NCBI GenBank assembly: GCA_018333535.1
Contig: JAGXTA010000046.1
Coordinates: 20,551 to 84,550 of the forward strand
Length of the DNA: 64,000 nucleotides
Source of the DNA: Deltaproteobacteria bacterium
Lineage (GTDB): Bacteria > Desulfobacterota > BSN033 > UBA1163
Direction of reading: 5' to 3'
The notes below the pieces were generated by a model. That model ran no database searches. It worked only from the letters and a program-made list of their open reading frames with translations, and was not told where the DNA came from. A program made the position numbers and the translations under genes. This document shows positions 17,338-63,940 of this stretch, one piece after another. The first letter of the stretch is position 1, and each line of letters starts with the position of its first letter.

Positions 17338-17479
17338 CTGAAATGCCTCACCTAAAGAATTATTCCAGCGGATGGATTACAGTCACTGCTGTTTTTAGCT
17401 GTTAATGTCCGCTTTCAAAGCGTAATCCTCATCCTCAAGGATCACACTCGGAACAACATTTGTAGGTGCTATAGGCACT

Positions 17480-17704
17480 CTGAAAACTGGAAAGTATAAA
17501 ATAGAGCTTCTGTTAACCCCGTTTGAAGGCCCCAGCATTCCTGCCTGTCGGCAGACAGGTATGCTTGAGGATGGTAGAAATAGAAAGCATCCCTGCCTGT
17601 CGGCAGACAGGAGCTCCTCATTTAGTGTGGGGTTAAACCCCTGCCTCTTCTAACGGGGTTTACTCGCCCTCCATCTGAATCTCAATCTTTTTGGGTTTCT
17701 CGCA
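17480..17704. repeat. Direct repeat DR1 (about 225 bp). It contains two CCTGCCTGTCGGCAGACAGG palindromes and a copy of the last 15 codons of mobB.
   Basis: Near-identical to 18428-18650. The end of the repeat encodes ...CEKPKKIEIQMEGE*, compared with ...IEIQIEGE* for authentic mobB. Confidence 0.75.
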
Positions 17705-18355: not shown

Positions 18356-18427
18356 AGCTCTGCGCCTATCATAACCTTCAATTCCTGAACATGGTTGCAG
18401 TAATGACTTGGAGGTGAAATACGCAAA

Positions 18428-18650
18428 CTGAAAACTGGAAAGCATAAAATAGATATCATGTTTACCCCGTTAGAAAGCCTCAGCATTCCTGCCTGTCGGC
18501 AGACAGGTATGCTGAGGATGGTAGAAATAGAAAGCATCCCTGCCTGCGGCAGGCAGGAGCTCCTTATTTAGGGCGAGGTCAAACCCCTGCCCTTTCTGAC
18601 GGGGTTTACTCGCCCTCAATCTGAATCTCAATCTTTTTGGGTTTCTCGCA
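18428..18650. repeat. Direct repeat DR2 (about 223 bp) overlapping the authentic 3' end of mobB
   Basis: See DR1. Together the repeats bracket the hicAB cassette. Confidence 0.75.
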
Positions 18651-32641: not shown

Positions 32642-32713
32642 GTATGGCACTTCTACGGTTCTTTTCTTAAGAGGGTGTTCGGGTAGTAAAAAGATAAAAA
32701 GGAGGTGAAAACC

Positions 32714-32998
32714 ATGTTATCAAATATACCCATCAATCTTGAGCTTGTTGGAAAGGGAGACACGGACAAAGAAATACTAAGGGCCGGGGTCATCGCGGAA
32801 CTGGACGCTATCAACCTTTACGAACAAATGGCCGCCATGGCCAAAGATAAGAATCTCAAAAAAATTCTGCTTGATATAGCCAAAGAAGAGAAAACTCATG
32901 TCGGAGAATTCCTGACACTGCTCCTGAGAAAAGACGGAGAGCAAGAAGCGGAGCTAGAAAAGGGAAAAAAAGAGGTTGAAGAGTTGATGGAAAAGTAG
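32714..32998 (+). CDS. Ferritin-like/rubrerythrin-like small protein (EncFtn-like)
   Basis: ELDAINLYEQMA...IAKEEKTHVGEF, with the E..H di-iron ligand pattern. Strong RBS AAGGAGGTG. An alternative GTG lies at 32705. Confidence 0.6.
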   Translation: MLSNIPINLELVGKGDTDKEILRAGVIAELDAINLYEQMAAMAKDKNLKKILLDIAKEEKTHVGEFLTLLLRKDGEQEAELEKGKKEVEELMEK

Positions 32999-33131
32999 GA
33001 ATGGTAGGACGTTTCTAAGGATGTTGTCGCCGAGGATATTCATTGTCATATTGAAGATATTGTTTCAAATTCCAAATTGGATTCTAAAAGTGATAAAATG
33101 AGACTAGAACGAAGACCAAAGGAGGTGTCTT

Positions 33132-33839
33132 ATGGCCGAAGCAATAGATGGATGCGTGAAACCGGCAAAAGGGCCAATTATGGCTGGAGAATCGAAAGCC
33201 TCTCAACTGTCACCAATTCAAAAGGAGGAAATCAAAATGATCGCTCGAGTTGGCAAACCGGCGCCCGATTTTGAGGCAAGCGCCTATGTGGATGGGGGAT
33301 TCAAGAACATTAAGCTTTCAAATTATAAAGGAAAGTGGGTCGTCCTTTGCTTTTACCCTGGAGATTTTACCTTTGTCTGACCTACTGAATTGTCGGCAGT
33401 TGCCGCCAAATATCAAGAATTCAAGTCCCTTGGCGTAGAATTTTTATCATTCAGCACAGACAGTCGTTTTACCCACAAGATCTGGCAGGAGGAGGAGCTC
33501 TCAAAAATGGTTCCAGGTGGAGTGCCATTTCCAATGCTGTCAGATGCAGGTGGTCGTATTGGTAGTGTCTATGGAGTCTACGATGAAGATGCAGGGGTGG
33601 ACATTCGGGGTCGTTTTTTAATCGATCCGGATGGAGTCATTCAAGCCATGGAGACGGTCACGCCACCGGTGGGCCGGAACGTTTCTGAACTGATCCGACA
33701 GGTCAAGGCTTTTCAGCATACACGCGTTACAGGTGAGGTGATGCCTTCCGGATGGCAGCCTGGAAAACCGACCTTAAAGCCCGGTCCTGATTTGGTGGGA
33801 AAAGTTTGGAAGGTCTGGAAACCGGAAATGGCCTATTAA
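33132..33839 (+). CDS. Peroxiredoxin (AhpC/Tsa family) with in-frame UGA (selenocysteine predicted) at the peroxidatic-Cys position. Copy 1.
   Basis: ...FYPGDFTFV[TGA 33378-33380]PTEL... where the family has FVCPTE. The ORF track shows two same-frame ORFs split only by this TGA. The N-terminal 35-aa extension is conserved by synonymous changes in copy 2. Confidence 0.8.
33392..33407 (+). promoter_or_regulatory. Candidate bacterial SECIS hairpin 11 nt downstream of UGA in copy 1
   Basis: GTCGGCAGTTGCCGCC, a small stem-loop with GUU in the loop. Conserved in copy 2 at 38734-38749. Confidence 0.4.
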
Positions 33840-33878
33840 ATTTTTTCTGGATATGTCCCAGGGAGGCGGTCACGATCA

Positions 33879-34853
33879 ATGAACGATATCATTCAAGTGA
33901 GAGATCTAACGAAGTTCTATGGGAACACCCCTGCTATTGACCATATCTCCTTTGAAGTCAAAAAAGGGGAGGTCTTTGGTTTCCTTGGACCAAATGGAGC
34001 AGGGAAAACGACCACCATTCGGATGATGGTAGGCCTGACCCAACCCAGTTCCGGCACCGCATTGGTCGATGGCCACGATATTTTGAAGGAACCCGTGGAG
34101 GTCAAAAAGACAATTGGCCTTGTACCTGAAACCTCAAACCTCTATGGGGAGCTTACCGCACTTGAAAACCTTATCTATCAGGCAGAGATCTATGGAGTTC
34201 CAAGAAAAGAGCGCCGAATTAAAGCGATCCAGCTTCTTGAGGAATTCGGTTTGAAGGAACATCAAGACAAATCTTTTCAGAAATTATCGAGAGGATTAAA
34301 GCGAAGGCTAACGATTGCCGCTGCATTGATCCACCATCCCAAAATCCTCTTCCTTGATGAACCCACTACAGGTCTGGATGTGATGAGTGCAAGGGGGCTG
34401 AGGAAACTTATCCTTGATTCAAAAAAGAAAGGATTAACCATCTTTCTCACCACTCATTATATCCCTGAAGCAGAAAGCCTTTGTGATCGTATTGCTATTA
34501 TTGTTCAAGGGAAAATACGGGTCGTGGATACCCCCGAAAATATAAGAGACCAGATGAAGGAGGCCGAAGTCCTTGAGATCGGACTGGATCGCACTCCAGA
34601 GGATTTAAAGAGTAAGCTCCCTTCCGTGGATGGGATCGACAAGATTGTGATAGACGAAAACCGTATCCGTTTTCATACCAGGAGACTCGATCAGGTTGCA
34701 TCTCCTGTTATGAGATTCCTTGAAGGACACGGGGCCAAAATTAAATCGATTAATACGTTGAGTCCAAGCCTTGAAGATGCTTTTGTGAAAATAACCGGTC
34801 TCGATTCAGAGTTGATGAAGATCGATAAGCCAATGAAAGCAGGTCCGGAATAA
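33879..34853 (+). CDS. ABC transporter ATP-binding protein (ABC-2 type exporter)
   Basis: Walker A GPNGAGKTT, signature LSRGLKRRLTIA and Walker B LFLDEP. Confidence 0.9.
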   Translation: MNDIIQVRDLTKFYGNTPAIDHISFEVKKGEVFGFLGPNGAGKTTTIRMMVGLTQPSSGTALVDGHDILKEPVEVKKTIGLVPETSNLYGELTALENLIYQAEIYGVPRKERRIKAIQLLEEFGLKEHQDKSFQKLSRGLKRRLTIAAALIHHPKILFLDEPTTGLDVMSARGLRKLILDSKKKGLTIFLTTHYIPEAESLCDRIAIIVQGKIRVVDTPENIRDQMKEAEVLEIGLDRTPEDLKSKLPSVDGIDKIVIDENRIRFHTRRLDQVASPVMRFLEGHGAKIKSINTLSPSLEDAFVKITGLDSELMKIDKPMKAGPE

Positions 34854-34920
34854 TTTCCTCTCTCTCCCCCATGCGCCTGCCTGCCGGTAGGCAGGGGAGA
34901 GGGCGAGGGTGAGGGGGAAT

Positions 34921-35658
34921 ATGGAAGAACTCAAAAAAGTCTATTTCATAGCTAAAAAAGATATGGGGGCCTACTACCTCAAGCCTCCCTTAATCAGTTG
35001 GGGATTGATGCTTCCCATCGTCTTTGTATTAGCTTTCTATTTCAGAAATCCGGCGGGAATCAAAGAGGTCGTCCCAGGATTGATTGGTTTGACCCTTCTC
35101 TTCTCATGCACGTCCATGGCAGCCATCGTGATTACCTTTGAGAAAAGAATAGGTGCTCTGGAGCGGCTCCTCCTGGCACCATTGGAGATCAGAACGATCC
35201 TCTTCGGCAAGACCCTTGGAAGTTCTGTATTCGGGTTGGTTATCACCATCGTCATCACAATATTTCTCATTCCAATTATAGGCCTTTCTATTAATTATCC
35301 CTTTTCTTTTTCTCTCATTATCATCCTTTCTGGTATCGCCTTCTCACTCCTTGGAATCCTTATTTCTGTAGGAGTAAAGGAAGTCTTCGAAGCCATGACC
35401 ATGTCCAATTTCTTTCGATTCCCAATGATATTTTTATGCGGGGTCTTCTTTCCTGTGCCTTCCATGCCCTTCCCTCTTCCTATCCTCTCTTATCTCCTAC
35501 CATTGACCTATACGGTTGATGGTTTGAAACATTGCCTGTTGGAAGATAAAGGAATGATCCCTTTTTATCTGGATTTATTAATTTTATTAGGATTCGTTTT
35601 TTTACTCTTTAGTCTCTCGTTATTCATTTTTAAGAAAAGAATTCGCCAAGAATTCTGA
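34921..35658 (+). CDS. ABC-2 family transporter permease
   Basis: Six TM segments with an ABC-2-like topology. The ORF track begins at 34909 inside a REP element. Confidence 0.8.
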   Translation: MEELKKVYFIAKKDMGAYYLKPPLISWGLMLPIVFVLAFYFRNPAGIKEVVPGLIGLTLLFSCTSMAAIVITFEKRIGALERLLLAPLEIRTILFGKTLGSSVFGLVITIVITIFLIPIIGLSINYPFSFSLIIILSGIAFSLLGILISVGVKEVFEAMTMSNFFRFPMIFLCGVFFPVPSMPFPLPILSYLLPLTYTVDGLKHCLLEDKGMIPFYLDLLILLGFVFLLFSLSLFIFKKRIRQEF

Positions 35659-35673
35659 AAGGAGGTGAAAACC

Positions 35674-35814
35674 ATGTGCCAAAGTAAATCTGGTTGCACC
35701 CAACCCGAAAATCTGAAGGGAACCCCAAAGGATTGCTCGGCCGAGCAGATCAACGTCTGTCATCCTGGAGAGAAGGGGCATCCCTGTGAGGCTGAGGAAA
35801 CGGAAAGAAAATAG
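35674..35814 (+). CDS. Small Cys-rich protein (46 aa, 5 Cys)
   Basis: Strong RBS AAGGAGGTG, then a 7-nt gap, then ATG. MCQSKSGCTQPENLKGTPKDCSAEQINVCHPGEKGHPCEAEETERK. Below the 60-aa ORF-track cutoff. Confidence 0.4.
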   Translation: MCQSKSGCTQPENLKGTPKDCSAEQINVCHPGEKGHPCEAEETERK

Positions 35815-36093
35815 ATGATGTTTTATAAAAAAGAATGTATCATCAGTTCCGTTGAGACTCAGATTATCTTCACTTAAAAATCCCTCCGAACTTCCCTTTA
35901 GAGAGATGGTGGGATTTGATTTGCAGGGCGAGGCTTTAGCTTTGCATCAAGCAACCCTAAAGAGCTGCCCTACAAATAATTGGAGAAGGGGGTGTATTTG
36001 TTATTTGATCATATGGAAAGGAGGTGATGGACTGAAGATTAAATTCGGTTGGGTGGGGATGAATCTATAAAAATTAAAAGGGAGGTGGAAGTC

Positions 36094-37155
36094 ATGTTAA
36101 AGGAGATGAATCGAAGGGACTTTTTAAAGACAACAGCAGCGACAGGTGCGGTATTGATGGCAGGAGATGTTTTGAAAGGAGGTGCTACAATGGCATATGG
36201 TTCTGTAAAAATCCCAGAGGTTGAAAAATTGGTTATTACCGTCATAACGGACAATTACTATGATTGCCTGAGGCCAAATTACAAGGTGGCTAAGAGATAT
36301 TTCATCATTCCTGGTACATCTATCCATTCAGAGCATGGCTTGGCTTATTACATCGAGACGGCCATCAATGGCAAGCCCAATACCTTTATGTTTGATTATG
36401 GATTGGATTTCCAGGGGGTCGGTAAAAACATGGAGCTTCTCGACATCGACGTGAAGAGAGTAGAGGCACTAGGGATAAGCCATGGCCATTTTGACCATTG
36501 GGGAAATCTTATTGCCATTCTCAAATATAATAGAACGAAAATCAGGAAGGGGATCCCCTTGTATGTAGGTGAGGAAACCTTTTCTCACAGGTTTGCCAAA
36601 CTGCCACCCGGACCTTTCGAAGTAAGTGGTCTCATTGATCTGGAGCAGTTGAGAAGGGATGAGATCGAAAGCCTCGGCACGGTTAAGATTGTAGAGGTAA
36701 AAGATCCGACTCTTATTGTTCCTGGAGCATATCTGACTGGAAATATTGAAAGAGTTACCGAATATGAGAAAGGGTCGCCGATTTTATTAATCAAAAGAGG
36801 AGATAAAATGGATCTCGATCTCTTCATGGGAGAGCAGGCACTGGTATTTAATGTAAAGGGAAAGGGTTTGGTAGTTGTCTCATCCTGTGCCCATGCCGGG
36901 ATTGTCAACACAGTAAAACACGCCCAGAAAATGACTGGAATAGATAAAGTCCATGCCATCATCGGAGGATTTCATTTGAGCGGTGCCAAACCTGAGGTAA
37001 TCCAGAGGACGATTGCCGACATCAAGGCTGTTACTCCAGAATACATCGTTCCCATGCACTGTACTGGATTTGAGGCCGTCACAGCATTCGCCAGAGAAAT
37101 GCCAGGGCAATTTATCATTAACACTGCCGGAACCAGATACATCTTTACAGCTTAG
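36094..37155 (+). CDS. MBL-fold metallo-hydrolase with a twin-arginine (Tat) signal
   Basis: MLKEMNRRDFLKTTAATGAVLMA Tat motif. HGHFDHWG metallo-beta-lactamase motif. RBS GGGAGGTGG. Confidence 0.8.
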   Translation: MLKEMNRRDFLKTTAATGAVLMAGDVLKGGATMAYGSVKIPEVEKLVITVITDNYYDCLRPNYKVAKRYFIIPGTSIHSEHGLAYYIETAINGKPNTFMFDYGLDFQGVGKNMELLDIDVKRVEALGISHGHFDHWGNLIAILKYNRTKIRKGIPLYVGEETFSHRFAKLPPGPFEVSGLIDLEQLRRDEIESLGTVKIVEVKDPTLIVPGAYLTGNIERVTEYEKGSPILLIKRGDKMDLDLFMGEQALVFNVKGKGLVVVSSCAHAGIVNTVKHAQKMTGIDKVHAIIGGFHLSGAKPEVIQRTIADIKAVTPEYIVPMHCTGFEAVTAFAREMPGQFIINTAGTRYIFTA

Positions 37156-37163
37156 ATTGACCC

Positions 37164-37203
37164 GGGGCGTTGAGGTTTCATTCACCTCAACGCCCCCTTT
37201 TTT
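37164..37203 (+). terminator. Rho-independent terminator
   Basis: The stem GGGGCGTTGAGG-tttcatt-CCTCAACGCCCC is followed by CTTTTTTT. Confidence 0.8.
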
Positions 37204-37307
37204 ACAGGGCTTTTTGAGATTGAGATTCAAGTTCTGCTGAATATTTTTGGAGCGAAAAGGTGAGATCCTTTTATCTAAATCAGAAGAGGTGAGGAGGGGG
37301 ATTTTAT

Positions 37308-38459
37308 ATGAGATCTTTTCTTAATCAATATGTTAAATTACCCATCGTTTTATTTGCCTTAATTCTTCCCTTATTTTTTACTATATCAATCTCTCTCGCT
37401 TTAGACTTCGCTCCCATTCGAACCCCGTCCACCGGCTATCAACCTCAATTTCAAGTCTCAGGGAACAAAATCTACTATGTCTGGCATGAGTACGATGGTC
37501 CCTATCGGCAGATTTTCACTGCGGAAATGAACACTGATGGGACAGGATGGAGGTCAGAAAAAAGAACTTCTGGCCAATTTGATAAAGTCTTTCCTCAACT
37601 TCAGGTTGCGAATGACAAGATCTATTATGTTCGTCAGCAACCTGATCTAACAATAAATCGCCAGATCTGGACGATGGAGATGAGCATTGACGGAACAGGA
37701 TGGAAAGAGGTTCAGAGGACGAATACCCCCTTTGATAAGCAGTTTCCCCAGCTACAGGTGGTTGGCAATAAAATTTATTATACCTGGAATGAATCAGATG
37801 GAAAACACCGCCAGGTATGGACAGCAGAGATGAATTTAGATGGGTTGGGCTGGGAGGCAGTGAAAAGGACCTCAACACCTTATGACAAATTTGAGCCTCA
37901 GCTTCAGGTCGTGGGTGAAAAAATCTATTTCGTTTGGAGGGAGTTTGACGGAAGACATTTTCAGATCTGGACGGCTGTCATGGATATTGATGGGAAAGGG
38001 TGGCAAGAAGTGAAGCGGACAAATACCCTGTTCGACAAACATAACCCGCAACTCCAGGTGGATGAAGGAAGAATCTACTATACCTGGCATGAAGCAGATG
38101 GCCCGGATTGGCAAAAAGCAAGATATCAGATATGGACAGCTCAGATGAACATCAATGGAACAGGATGGCTGGCGAATCAAAGAACCTTTGTAGGCTTTGA
38201 TAAGTATACCCCCCAATTACAAGTTCAACGAGGAAGAATTTATTATATCTGGGAGGAATCTGATGGGAAATATCGTCAGATTTGGACGGCTGTGACGAGT
38301 AAGGATGGAACGGGATGGATATCTGAAAAGAGGACGACATCTCCTTATGGAAAATACGACCCCCAATTTCAGATTGTTGGGAATAGAGTTTATTATGTGT
38401 GGCACGAAGACCACGGACCTACTGAACCCATCTGGGTGGCTATAGAGACACTAAAATAG
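37308..38459 (+). CDS. Secreted repeat protein with about 6.5 tandem copies of a roughly 46-aa unit (beta-propeller-like)
   Basis: Signal peptide. Repeats of [48 protein letters not shown]. Confidence 0.7.
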
Positions 38460-38473
38460 AAAGGAGGTTAAAT

Positions 38474-39181
38474 ATGGCTGAAGCAAAAGATGGATGTGTG
38501 AAGCCGGCAAAGGGGCCCATCGGTTTGGCGGAAACCAAAACCTCTCAAACCGCACAAATCCAAAAGGAGGAATTGAAGATGATGGCTCAAGTTGGAAAAC
38601 CAGCACTGGATTTTGAAGCGAGTGCCTATATCGACGGGGGTTTTAAAAATATCAAATTATCTGATTATAAAGGCAAATGGGTAGTCCTCTGTTTTTATCC
38701 CGGTGATTTCACGTTCGTTTGACCTACCGAGTTGTCGGCAGTTGCCGTCAAATACGATGAGTTCAAATCGCTCGGAGTTGAGGTTTTGTCATGCAGTACA
38801 GATAGCCGCTTCATCCACAAGATCTGGCAGGAAGAAGAACTCTCGAAGATGGTGAAAGGTGGGGTTCCCTTTCCGATGCTGTCGGATGCAGGAGGCCGCA
38901 TCGGGAGTGCCTACGGCGTCTACGATGAAGAAGCAGGAGTCAATATTCGGGGTCGTTTTTTGATCGATCCGGATGGGGTCATCCAGGCAATGGAGACTGT
39001 TGCTCCACCGGTCGGCAGGAACGTTCCCGAACTGATCCGGCAGGTCAAGGCCTTTCAGCATGTGCGTGCAACGGGTGAGGTCATGCCTTCCGGATGGCAA
39101 CCTGGGAAACCGACCCTAAAACCCGGACTGGATTTGGTTGGCAAAGTATGGAAAGTCTGGAAACCCGAGATGGCTTTTTAA
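38474..39181 (+). CDS. Peroxiredoxin (AhpC/Tsa family) with in-frame UGA (selenocysteine predicted) at the peroxidatic-Cys position. Copy 2.
   Basis: ...FYPGDFTFV[TGA 38720-38722]PTEL.... About 75-80% nt identity to copy 1 across the whole gene, including the N-terminal extension. Confidence 0.8.
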
Positions 39182-39272
39182 CACTATTCCCTGACCCCCT
39201 GCCTACCGCGAGGCAGGCATCCCTCTCCCCCTGCCTACCGGCAGGCAGGCGCTGGGGAGAGGGAGAGGTAAA

Positions 39273-39734
39273 ATGTACAGATGTATGATGGATAAGGAAG
39301 CTCATCAACTTAAAGATTTTTTAGAATTGGGTGGACTAAAAAGTACCAAAGAAAGAGAAACGATTCTCAAAGAACTTGAAGTTCTGGAGGAACATTTCAA
39401 CGCTGAAAAACTATATTCAATTCTCAGCAGAAAGGGAACGAAGGTCTCACGACCTACTATTTATCGAACGCTAAAGCTTCTTGAACGATTCCATCTCATT
39501 GAAAGGCTCGATGTTAAAAAGAACTGTTTCTATTACGAGCCTATGTCTCATAAAAAGGACCATGGCCATCTGGTTTGCGAGCATTGTGGGAGGATTATTG
39601 ATTTTGCAAGTGAGAGTATTCAAGATTTGAAATCGGAGGTATTCGAGGGGAAGAACTTCAAACTGGACAATATTTCCATTCAGATATTCGGCATATGCGA
39701 GACATGTCAGAAAACATCTAAAATTAAAAGCTAA
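39273..39734 (+). CDS. Fur-family transcriptional regulator (PerR-like by context)
   Basis: HGHLVCEHCG...CETCQ metal sites and the Fur fold. It lies between the Sec-peroxiredoxin and the Sec-NADH-oxidase-like gene. Confidence 0.8.
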   Translation: MYRCMMDKEAHQLKDFLELGGLKSTKERETILKELEVLEEHFNAEKLYSILSRKGTKVSRPTIYRTLKLLERFHLIERLDVKKNCFYYEPMSHKKDHGHLVCEHCGRIIDFASESIQDLKSEVFEGKNFKLDNISIQIFGICETCQKTSKIKS

Positions 39735-39750
39735 ATATGAGGAGAGGAAG

Positions 39751-41118
39751 ATGTTAAAGAAAGAGAAACTTGTCATCATTGGCGGATCGGCCGCTGGCCC
39801 CAGTGCAGCAGCCAGGGCAAAGCGAGTTAATCCTGATCTTGAAGTGACTATGTTCGAACAGGGTCGATTCGTATCCTATGGCTCCTGAGAAACTCCTTAT
39901 TACATCGGTGATGTAGTAAAAGATCAGAGCAAATTGATAGTCCGGACACCCCAACAGTTTAAAGAAATGCAAGATATTGATGTGAAGACCGAGCATCGCG
40001 TCACTAAAATTGATTCCAAAGAGAAAAGGATTGAAGTTGTGAATTTATCAAAATCCGAAACTCAATGGTTTTCTTACGACAAACTTATCGTTGCTACAGG
40101 TGCCCGATCCAGACGTCTCAATATTCCCGGAAGCAATGCCAAGAACATATTCACCCTGAAAGATCTTGATGACGGCATCCGTATTAAGAATTATATCGAT
40201 GAAAAAAGGCCGAAAAGGGTTGCTATCCTCGGTGGTGGCTTTATTGCATTGGAGATGTGCGAGGCTTTTCGGTTAAGAAATTGTGAGACCTTTCTATTCT
40301 GCCGCAGAGATTTACCCGCGGGTAATCTCGAAAGGGAAATCTCTGAAAAAATATTGAAGGAGTTAGAAGAGAATGGCATTCATTTCCTCGCCCATCATGA
40401 ACCCGCAGCATTTAAGATGAATAGTAATGGAGAAGCCATCTCCTTCGAAACCAATAAAGCCGAATATCCTGTGGATATGGTCTTGATGGCCATTGGAGTC
40501 ATTCCGAATGTGGAAATAGCTAAAGAGGCAGGTATTGAGCTTGGAAAGACCGGAGCGATTCGAACAGACACGGCTCAAAGGACTAATCTTACAGACATTT
40601 ATTCGGCAGGAGACTGCTCAGAAGTTTTTAATCTCGTGAGTCAGGATTGGGTTCATACACCCCTTGGAGATATTGCGAACAAACAGGGCCGGGTGGCAGG
40701 TGAGAACGCTGCCGGTGGAAAGGCCACTTTTTCCGGTGCAGTGGGGTCAGCTGCTTTTAAGGTTTTTGAATTGGAGGTGGCCTTCACAGGTTTAGGAACA
40801 CAGACTGCCCGAGGATATGGTTTTGATGTGGATTCACAGATCATTGAGGCTGAATCGAAGGTAGGATATATGCCGGGATCAAAATGGATGCTCATTAAGT
40901 TGATTTTTGATAGAAGGAGTGGAAGGCTTTTGGGTGCTCAGATGGTCGGGAAGGAAGGAGTGGCTCGGAGGATCAACGCCCTTGCGGTCGCGGTTCATCA
41001 GAAGATGAGCGTGGACGAAATTGCACGGCTCGATTTTGCTTATGCGCCTCCTTTCTCCGCTCCCTTGGATCCGATTTTAATAGCTGCCGAGCAGGCAGCG
41101 AAGAAAATCGTTAGGTAG
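39751..41118 (+). CDS. NADH oxidase/CoA-disulfide reductase-family FAD-dependent oxidoreductase with in-frame UGA (selenocysteine predicted) at the redox-active Cys position
   Basis: RBS GAGGAGAGG. N-terminal FAD motif LVIIGGSAAGPSAAARAKR. FVSYGS[TGA 39886-39888]ETPYYIGDVV compares with the family motif ISFANCGLPYYIGG. The frame is continuous with ORF 39934-41118. Confidence 0.75.
39896..39919 (+). promoter_or_regulatory. Candidate bacterial SECIS hairpin beginning about 10 nt after UGA
   Basis: Stem TTATTACATC/GATGTAGTAA with one mismatch. Apical loop GGU. Confidence 0.45.
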
Positions 41119-41164
41119 AAAATACAGGATTCTGAATTTAATAAAAATCCAAAAGGAGGAGAAC

Positions 41165-41341
41165 ATGGCAGTCATTATTGATCTGGAAAAATGCACAGGA
41201 TGCGGTACTTGTGAAGAGGGTTGTCCGGTAGAGGCCATTAAGATTGAGAATGAGAAGGCTGTAGTCGATGCAGAGACCTGCGTTGATTGTGGCACCTGTA
41301 TCGATGAATGTGCTGAAAAAGCCATCAGCGAAGGAACATAA
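41165..41341 (+). CDS. 2x[4Fe-4S] ferredoxin (58 aa)
   Basis: CTGCGTCEEGCP and CVDCGTCIDEC motifs. RBS AAAGGAGG. Below the ORF-track size cutoff. Confidence 0.8.
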   Translation: MAVIIDLEKCTGCGTCEEGCPVEAIKIENEKAVVDAETCVDCGTCIDECAEKAISEGT

Positions 41342-63502: not shown

Positions 63503-63940
63503 TCACTGGCAATCCCCACAAAGGCCGTAGAATTCAAGCAGATGATCCAAGACCTTGAAATCCTTTCGCTGAGAGATCTCGTTCTCCTGGCTCAACAAGG
63601 GTTTTTTGAATACCATGGGTTCCACCTTGTTACAGCGAACACAAATGAGATGATGATGATGTACGTCCTGGCAAACCTTGTATCCCCTTTTACTCCCCCC
63701 GACAGGTATCTCGCAAATCATCTTTTTTCCTTTTAAGAAAATGACTTCTCTATAAATGGTGGTTCTATCTGCCCTAATATTATTCCTCGTGAGATTCTCC
63801 TTGATCTCAGAAAGGGAGACAGGGGCTTGACTATTTGCAAGCAAATCAACGATAAATTGCCGGACTTTCGTGAGGCGGTACCCTTGGATCTTGAGTTTTC
63901 TTAGAAGTGGATTCTGTTGAATTTGATCTGAGTGGGTCAT
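63503..63940 (-). CDS. zur: Fur-family regulator (Zur-like by context)
   Basis: Fur fold with HHHLICVRC...CGDCQ. Lies upstream of znuACB. Confidence 0.8.
   Translation of the reverse strand: MTHSDQIQQNPLLRKLKIQGYRLTKVRQFIVDLLANSQAPVSLSEIKENLTRNNIRADRTTIYREVIFLKGKKMICEIPVGGSKRGYKVCQDVHHHHLICVRCNKVEPMVFKKPLLSQENEISQRKDFKVLDHLLEFYGLCGDCQ

Follow-up and report, generated by a model that had tools for sequence, protein, structure and literature searches.

The DNA stretch of 64,000 nucleotides analysed here (the window; contig JAGXTA010000046.1 of assembly GCA_018333535.1, a Deltaproteobacteria bacterium, with positions counted from its first letter) contains two copies of a peroxiredoxin gene, prxU, each with an in-frame TGA. 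We are concerned mainly with copy 2, at 38474-39181, which by sequence comparison very probably encodes a functional selenocysteine (Sec) peroxiredoxin of the PrxU family with the AhpC/Prx1-type fold. From the ATG at 38474, its frame meets just one TGA, at 38720-38722. A sequence-only reading of the window had described a second Sec-peroxiredoxin copy with its TGA at this place, and both the open reading frame (ORF) and the family score given below agree. The features of the gene, and the paralogue used for comparison, are:

38474-39181, + strand: prxU copy 2, 235 sense codons including the Sec codon, then the stop TAA at 39179-39181
38463-38467, + strand: Shine-Dalgarno sequence GGAGG of the long-form start, 6 nt 5' of the ATG at 38474
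38474-38578, + strand: N-terminal extension, codons 1-35, with the conserved Cys8 motif (Cys8 codon 38495-38497) followed by a variable linker
38566-38584, + strand: internal Shine-Dalgarno sequence GGAGG (38566-38570) and ATG ATG (38579-38584; Met36/Met37), a candidate second start
38720-38722, + strand: UGA codon for Sec, residue 83, at the peroxidatic position in PGDFTFV-U-PTE
38732-38751, + strand: Sec insertion sequence (SECIS) hairpin; 38732-38740 forms the stem with 38743-38751, closing on an apical G-U (38741-38742), and 38735/38748 is a U·U mismatch
39083-39085, + strand: Met204 codon, at the canonical resolving-cysteine position (GEV-M-PSGW in place of GEV-C-PAGW)
33132-33839, + strand: prxU copy 1, the comparison paralogue, with its TGA at 33378-33380 and SECIS at 33390-33409

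Both proteins match the NCBIfam equivalog model NF040737 (peroxi_PrxU, a thioredoxin-dependent Sec-peroxiredoxin; cut-off 270 bits) over residues 6-233 of 235, copy 2 with 401.3 bits and copy 1 with 400.2 bits, whereas the AhpC equivalog TIGR03137 (cut-off 272) is not reached, at 208.8 and 196.4 bits, respectively. Pfam AhpC-TSA is matched with E = 2e-38 for copy 2 (about 1e-38 for both copies), and 1-cysPrx_C is matched as well. The closest solved structures are typical 2-Cys peroxiredoxins, namely AcePrx-1, human Prx2 and AhpC (E about 1e-54), aligned from residue 38 on. With this class (human Prx2, 1QMV; AhpC, 1YEP and 1N8J), the window proteins share the fold and the active site, with its Pro, Thr and Arg, over residues 38-220, including the elements PxxxTxxC, RG-F and GEV-x-P-GW. 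The PxxxTxx(C/U) and RG-F blocks align, and Sec83 aligns to the peroxidatic cysteine of human Prx2. An AlphaFold2 model of a Cys-form homologue (P0018, 72% identical) has a predicted local distance difference test score (pLDDT) above 90 in its core. The window proteins differ from typical 2-Cys enzymes in that Sec is the peroxidatic residue and the resolving Cys of the VCP motif is replaced by Met (Thr in most relatives).

The nearest characterized counterpart is the PrxU of Eubacterium (Peptoclostridium) acidaminophilum (Söhling et al. 2001, Biol Chem 382:979, as cited in PMC13188914 and PMC7231847), which likewise has Sec at the peroxidatic position of TxxU and a SECIS within the ORF directly 3' of it; the window proteins, in contrast, are long forms that carry 35 extra residues, among them a Cys, at the N terminus. 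Bacterial selenoproteome surveys (Zhang et al. 2006, PMC1794560; Sargasso Sea, PMC1088965) list Sec-peroxiredoxins with the same TxxU redox motif, which are widely distributed among anaerobic Deltaproteobacteria, Syntrophus aciditrophicus being one of them. Genomes with several copies are also on record, with three in Anaeromyxobacter dehalogenans and two in Alkaliphilus metalliredigenes (Zhang et al. 2006, PMC1794560). Compared with the surveyed genes, the window copies lie 5.3 kb apart in one redox cluster and represent two lineages, each of which is found on its own in the nearest relatives. Thus, the gene is a new PrxU in an uncultured member of the Syntrophaceae, while the family and the duplication of Sec-peroxiredoxin genes were already known.

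Copies 1 and 2 are both 708 nt long and align without gaps. They are identical at 560 of 708 nucleotides (79.1%), within the 75-80% that had been estimated, and their proteins agree at 206 of 236 aligned positions (87%). The 148 nucleotide differences are distributed 19/17/112 over codon positions 1/2/3, a strong third-position excess (P = 7e-26, binomial) that persists in the 152 codons 3' of the TGA (9/9/68; P = 4e-18, binomial). Counted by codon, 97 differences are synonymous and 30 are non-synonymous, so the description of the differences as overwhelmingly synonymous holds, with 112 of the 148 at third positions. The codon string that had been quoted to illustrate this pattern across the stop is exact (codons 7-15), but it lies in the N-terminal extension and not across the stop.

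The ratio of non-synonymous to synonymous substitution rates (dN/dS) between the copies is 0.043-0.071 for the whole gene, as calculated by three methods, and 0.038-0.058 for the part 3' of the UGA. It is about 0.04 from Met36 to Val82 and about 0.24 in codons 1-35. In the 29 codons around the UGA, where the sequence-only reading had named a ratio near 1 as the sign against it, the value is about 0.07. Similarity between the copies begins 14 nt 5' of the ATG, at the Shine-Dalgarno sequence, and stops at the stop codon, with unrelated flanks on both sides. Recent gene conversion was considered and rejected, as no identical run exceeds 18 nt, identity at third positions stays at 0.53 along the whole gene and the flanks show no relationship. 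Purifying selection is also seen between species: dN/dS is 0.066-0.114 for copy 2 and its orthologue at locus L005, and 0.032-0.055 for copy 1 and its orthologue at locus L007. Because each copy keeps orthologues in other uncultured Syntrophaceae with low dN/dS, neither is decaying. Decay of one copy had been raised as a possible objection, and no sign of it was found.

The in-frame TGA is conserved far more widely. We assembled 164 related loci (80 in species-representative genomes, 80 in metagenomes and 4 found by exact-protein look-up), which together hold 169 PrxU-like genes with at least 55% identity. The Sec codon is TGA in 168 of these genes and TGC in one. The loci belong to the Thermodesulfobacteriota, Chloroflexota, Ignavibacteria, Actinomycetota, Zixibacteria, Acidobacteriota and Planctomycetota, among others.

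The three codons that follow the UGA, encoding Pro-Thr-Glu (P-T-E), are informative with regard to decoding. In an alignment of 83 distinct homologous sequences that covers these codons and the SECIS, columns 4, 5, 7, 8, 10 and 11 do not vary at all, and variation is confined to the third positions, columns 6, 9 and 12. Since third positions alone vary there, the P-T-E codons are translated and the UGA must be read through. The first candidate for re-initiation beyond the UGA would be the TTG at 38732, but no Shine-Dalgarno sequence lies 5' of it, and the position is occupied by CTG, CTC, CTT or TTA in many of the 83 homologues. Re-initiation there is excluded, because the P-T-E codons are under codon-level selection and the TTG is not kept as a start. 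Elsewhere in the window TGA is an ordinary stop, ending 16 of 46 long ORFs; the genetic code is therefore standard and the recoding local. A crude scan of the window for further genes with an in-frame TGA returned only the two prxU copies and a CoA-disulfide reductase (CoADR)-like gene, described below. A candidate at 63503-63505 was rejected as the normal stop of another Fur-family gene.

Immediately 3' of the P-T-E codons lies the SECIS hairpin. A 16-nt block, TTGTCGGCAGTTGCCG, is identical in the two copies (38732-38747 in copy 2, 33390-33405 in copy 1), and both fold as UUG-N-CGGC-AGUU-GCCG-N-CAA, beginning 12 nt after the U of the UGA; that the copies share the same post-UGA hairpin, as had been noted, is thus correct. 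Bacterial SECIS elements have 16-37 nt between the UGA and the apical loop (PMC10778597) and a small apical loop with a conserved G (PMC1088965). The hairpin at 38732-38751 falls within this description, with a gap of 17 nt and the loop A-G-U-U. The apical G-U (columns 22-23) is invariant in all 83 sequences. Over the eight pairs of the alignment, 91.6% of cells are paired, and five of the eight pairs show changes on both sides. Compensatory cells number 71, as compared with 18.3 ± 5.7 in shuffled alignments, and none of 500 shuffles reaches 71. The covariation score is 0.29 in the proposed register and 0.06-0.13 in slid registers. The most informative pairs among the 83 sequences are:

Pair 21-24: A-U in 49, G-C in 32, G-U in 1
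Pair 18-27: G-C in 70, A-U in 7, G-U in 4, C-G in 1, U-A in 1
Pair 15-30: G-C in 70, A-U in 3, C-G in 3, U-A in 1
Pair 16-29: G-C in 28, A-U in 18, U-A in 4, or a mismatch, as in both window copies

Each of the pairs 15-30, 18-27 and 21-24 links two synonymous third-codon positions. Protein coding cannot explain their covariation, because both sides are free to vary without changing the protein. We take the hairpin to be a genuine bacterial SECIS, a case built from the alignment on covariation and not on folding energy. It resembles the SECIS of E. coli fdhF in being an in-ORF hairpin just 3' of the UGA with a small apical loop that exposes G-U. The SelB-contacting G23/U24 of fdhF lie one nucleotide farther from the UGA than the G22/U23 of the window SECIS. 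The two differ in that the stem in the window is family-specific and constrained by the codons for L-[STA]-A-V-A-[VA]. They differ also at the place of the fdhF bulged U, where the window copies have a 1x1 mismatch (U·U or U·C) and many relatives a Watson-Crick pair. Copy 2 could form a longer lower stem (CCGAG...CUCGG; -18.3 kcal/mol, z = -2.15), but this was rejected as chance, since it is absent from copy 1 (z = -0.27) and from relatives.

In the canonical bacterial mechanism, a ribosome that meets the UGA at 38720-38722 would be assisted by the SECIS 10-29 nt downstream, whose exposed G-U would recruit SelB·GTP·Sec-tRNA(Sec). Sec would then be inserted at the UGA and translation would run on to the TAA at 39179. 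Sec83, in the PxxxTxxU peroxidatic pocket, would reduce peroxides.

Two other accounts of the UGA have to be weighed against decoding as Sec. Were the UGA to terminate translation, the locus would be a pseudogene or would yield two polypeptides, of 82 residues and of 149 residues re-initiated at TTG 38732. Automatic gene calls do divide the orthologues into ORFs of 81/82 and 149 residues, and other ORFs of the window end normally at TGA; however, the split would break the catalytic PxxxTxxC/U motif and lose the peroxidatic residue, and the proposed second start has neither a Shine-Dalgarno sequence nor a conserved codon, being CTG, CTC or TTA in many homologues. A TGA retained by 168 of 169 homologues in different phyla, alongside a covarying SECIS, would also not be expected of a null allele. 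Further, dN/dS is about 0.05 on both sides of the UGA, and the P-T-E codons between UGA and TTG are under codon-level purifying selection. We consider termination extremely improbable. The UGA might instead be decoded as something other than Sec, by near-cognate read-through with Trp or Cys or under a reassigned code, and many database homologues do show Trp at the Sec position (FTFVWPTE). These entries, however, derive from contigs of about 1 kb whose DNA has TGA, and are artefacts of gene calling under genetic code 4. A Trp could not act as the peroxidatic residue, TGA serves as a stop for 16 of 46 long ORFs under the standard code, and a hairpin with an invariant G-U at a SelB-type distance would have no role in simple read-through; we consider this account, too, extremely improbable. 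Purifying selection on a full-length, read-through protein rather than on a pseudogene, as the sequence-only reading had proposed, is what dN/dS, the P-T-E codons, the TGA, the SECIS, the PrxU model and the orthologues agree on.

Several observations weigh against decoding as Sec, or against the importance of the second copy. A tRNA scan of the 64-kb window gave tRNA-Lys only and no tRNA-Sec (selC). Likewise, selA, selB and selD were not identified in the window, whose ORFs were not screened specifically for SelA, SelB or SelD. The Sec machinery is assumed to be present by analogy with relatives rather than found in the window; Syntrophus aciditrophicus, of a related cultured genus, is listed with 19 selenoproteins (PMC1794560). 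Indirect evidence for it also comes from the CoADR-like gene, a second family whose in-frame TGA is conserved. Expression of the Sec protein is presumed from the DNA. An Rfam scan of the window at gathering threshold also found only tRNA-Lys and no SECIS family, a null that is uninformative for so short an in-ORF element. Taken by itself, the short hairpin of copy 1 does not reach significance in folding energy (z = -0.27 to -1.4). Finally, the closest relatives found have one PrxU in this region, and the need for two copies is thus not general.

Decoding of the UGA as Sec leaves the question of how the oxidized enzyme would be reduced. In copy 2 the resolving Cys of the C-terminal GEVCP motif has no match, the sequence being GEV-M-PSGW where Prx2 has GEVCPAGW. 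Across the family, position 204 is Thr in 115, Met in 44 and Cys in 5 homologues (Thr or Met in 159 of 169). With Met204 in place of the canonical C-terminal resolving Cys, copy 2 cannot go through the standard cycle of typical 2-Cys enzymes. To resolve the selenenic acid, either a thiol reductant such as thioredoxin would have to act on it directly or another Cys would have to take part. As regards a 1-Cys mechanism, in which no resolving thiol is involved, the canonical resolving Cys is absent, but Cys73 is kept in 166 of 169 homologues and Cys8 in 157 of 157; Cys8, in the N-terminal extension, would be the obvious candidate for a resolving Cys.

Both copies begin 35 codons 5' of the canonical peroxiredoxin N terminus, and this extension is part of the NF040737 model. 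The E. acidaminophilum PrxU is reportedly about 22 kDa, or about 203 residues, which is equivalent to the short form starting at Met36; that form scores 382 bits against the model. Aggregatilinea lenta and Desulfoferula mesophila are examples of cultured organisms with a long-form PrxU. Cys8 is invariant in all 157 aligned homologues, within the motif [DE]xC[VI]xPA[KR]GP, and in exported Planctomycetota forms the motif is retained after the signal peptide. The first 16 codons of copies 1 and 2 differ by six synonymous and one non-synonymous changes. Of 155 long-form homologues, 146 have a Shine-Dalgarno sequence and a start codon, in most cases 7 codons ahead of the conserved Cys. The invariant Cys8, the synonymous bias, the conserved Shine-Dalgarno sequence and start, and the motif kept behind signal peptides all argue that the extension is translated and functional. 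No solved structure among the structure matches covers it, as they align from residue 38, and in the AlphaFold2 model of P0018 its pLDDT is 46-59.

At the end of the extension lies a second possible start. A 12-nt block at this internal start is identical between the copies (the site in copy 1 is 33224-33239), inside a linker that is otherwise variable. GGAG or GAGG occurs 4-16 nt 5' of the internal ATG in 130 of the 136 homologues that have this ATG, as compared with 7% in control windows of the same genes, and in 117 cases the Shine-Dalgarno motif stands 6 or 9 nt from the ATG. All three codon frames of the motif are represented (120/9/3). Where the ATG is lacking, in 21 homologues, about 13 have GTG, also a common start codon, in its place, behind the same motif. 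The site is missing from the signal-peptide forms, in which internal initiation would strand the enzyme in the cytoplasm. This pattern in the homologous genes suggests that the conserved Shine-Dalgarno motif with ATG or GTG is the signature of a used initiation site, implying a long and a short isoform.

The distribution of Cys residues suggests that Cys8 may be an alternative resolving thiol that replaces the lost C-terminal Cys. A strict anticorrelation between the N-terminal Cys and the resolving Cys is only partly borne out. Neither is present in L036 and L055, which are true short forms preceded by a stop, and both are present in three long forms; the membrane-anchored forms L079 and L081 lack the Cys8 motif and keep the resolving Cys. 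We propose, tentatively and at somewhat short of even confidence, that long-form PrxU genes have dual starts, giving a 235-residue isoform in which a Sec83-Se-S-Cys8 bond would be reduced by thioredoxin and a 200-residue isoform that would act as a 1-Sec enzyme. The proposal is partly favoured by the conservation of the internal Shine-Dalgarno motif, its presence in all frames, the GTG replacements, its loss from signal-peptide forms and the invariance of Cys8. Nothing specific on the N-terminal extension of PrxU, an alternative resolving Cys or an internal start was found in the searchable literature. If the proposal is true, PrxU may have a catalytic cycle and a set of isoforms, defined by the N-terminal Cys and the internal start, that have so far gone unrecognised. 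To selenoprotein specialists the points on annotation and biology made here will be unsurprising, and the potentially useful lead is this family-level combination of N-terminal Cys and internal start.

The nearest genomes are those of uncultured Syntrophaceae, and each copy has its own orthologues there. Those of copy 2 are at L005 (94.5% identity) and L001 (91.5%), and those of copy 1 are at L006 and L007 (95-96%). Synonymous divergence (dS) is about 0.65-1.25 between the copy types (saturated under NG86) and 0.3-0.6 within a type. Because the former exceeds the latter, the split predates the divergence of these species, and copies 1 and 2 are best read as two old PrxU lineages (dS about 1 or more). 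Their genomic positions are less simple. L001 and L007 have a single PrxU before an ABC transporter, in the slot of copy 1, whereas L005 has a single PrxU between the repeat-protein gene and fur, in the slot of copy 2. The PrxU of L001 occupies the copy-1 slot but is of the copy-2 type (91.5% versus 88.0%). No close relative (at least 84% identity) carries both copies on one contig in the genome scan, the metagenome scan or the exact-protein look-up. Tandem or near-tandem Sec-PrxU pairs do occur in the distant lineages L065, L079 and L081, each with a long or anchored form and a short form. As a separate observation, comparison of L001, L005 and L007 indicates that the region corresponding to 33000-41200 has been rearranged repeatedly among the Syntrophaceae.

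The slot pattern fits both an old duplication with reciprocal loss and an exchange between related lineages. One form of the latter would make copy 2 a xenologue, that is, a prxU allele from a related Syntrophaceae lineage that recombined between the repeat-protein gene and the fur-like gene and is functional but foreign. This would account for the relatives' single PrxU in one slot or the other and never in both, for the copy-2-type sequence in the copy-1 slot of L001, and for homology between the copies that spans exactly the Shine-Dalgarno sequence and coding region with unrelated flanks. The same pattern is, however, explained by old duplication followed by reciprocal loss, and the greater dS between types (0.65-1.25 against 0.3-0.6 within) places the split before the divergence of the species. 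Moreover, no mobile-element genes were seen beside either copy, and contigs of metagenome-assembled genomes are incomplete, such that a second copy may sit elsewhere in the relatives' genomes. On this evidence, we regard foreign origin of copy 2 as a reasonable but rather doubtful explanation. The term paralogue, used in the sequence-only reading, is accordingly right in that copy 2 is a second homologous copy, but the relationship may reflect either old duplication with differential loss or transfer between related lineages.

Copy 2 is flanked by genes on the same strand, as follows:

37308-38459, + strand: DUF5050-like repeat protein; its stop TAG (38457-38459) ends 14 nt before the start of prxU copy 2
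39273-39734, + strand: Fur-family regulator (Pfam FUR, E = 5e-31); the PerR model scores best, with 82.6 bits against a cut-off of 180, and all models are below their cut-offs
39751-41118, + strand: CoADR/NADH oxidase-like flavoprotein with an in-frame TGA at 39886-39888, at the redox-active Cys position (VSYGS-U-ETPYYIG)

The CoADR-like gene scores 427 bits with TIGR03385, below the cut-off of 579. Its orthologues in L001-L004 are split at the same point into ORFs of 45 and 395 residues, and by its sequence it is predicted to be the third selenoprotein gene of the window. Among the bacterial selenoprotein families on record is 'NADH oxidase', which has been reported from Geobacter metallireducens (PMC1794560). 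Genes for a ferredoxin and a MOSC protein follow 3' of it. A strong terminator-like hairpin (37164-37196) lies 5' of the repeat-protein gene. Judged from this gene order, copy 2 probably belongs to an oxidative- or peroxide-stress cluster and is perhaps co-transcribed with its neighbours. Thus, an uncultured Syntrophaceae genome would hold two PrxU lineages and a Sec-containing CoADR/NADH-oxidase-like enzyme in one Fur/PerR-linked cluster, consistent with a strict anaerobe that invests heavily in selenium-based peroxide defence.

The analysis also bears on annotation, as this gene and some 168 homologues are regularly mis-called either as fragments of 81/82 and 149 residues or as Trp proteins under genetic code 4. 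The covarying SECIS, combined with codon-level selection, provides a clean rule for repairing such split or Trp calls of PrxU genes.

Some further features of the region were noted. The repeat protein at 37308-38459 has 383 residues, an N-terminal hydrophobic segment and repeats of about 50 residues (YY[VT]W...QIWTA...DG.GW; DNA repeat family D1); its match to DUF5050 is weak, and it adjoins PrxU in L005 too. Just 5' of copy 1, at 32705-32998 (+ strand), is a small encapsulin-associated ferritin-like protein of the EncFtn/EncB type, which falls short of the NCBIfam cut-offs. Two GC-rich repeats of some 50 nt, with 88% identity and opposite orientations, are found 3' of copy 2 (39221-39271) and between the genes for the ABC ATPase and the permease (34854-34903). 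The segment 39199-39262 is rich in palindromes (ctgcctaccg...ggcaggc) and may be an element of the repetitive extragenic palindromic (REP) kind or a terminator. Farther away, a pair of duplicated coding segments that encode VLVDFWATWCGPC, a thioredoxin-type motif, occurs at 1176-1215 and 1793-1832, 617 nt apart, and the blocks at 17460-17704 and 18408-18650, about 947 nt apart, are duplicates with 86-90% identity.

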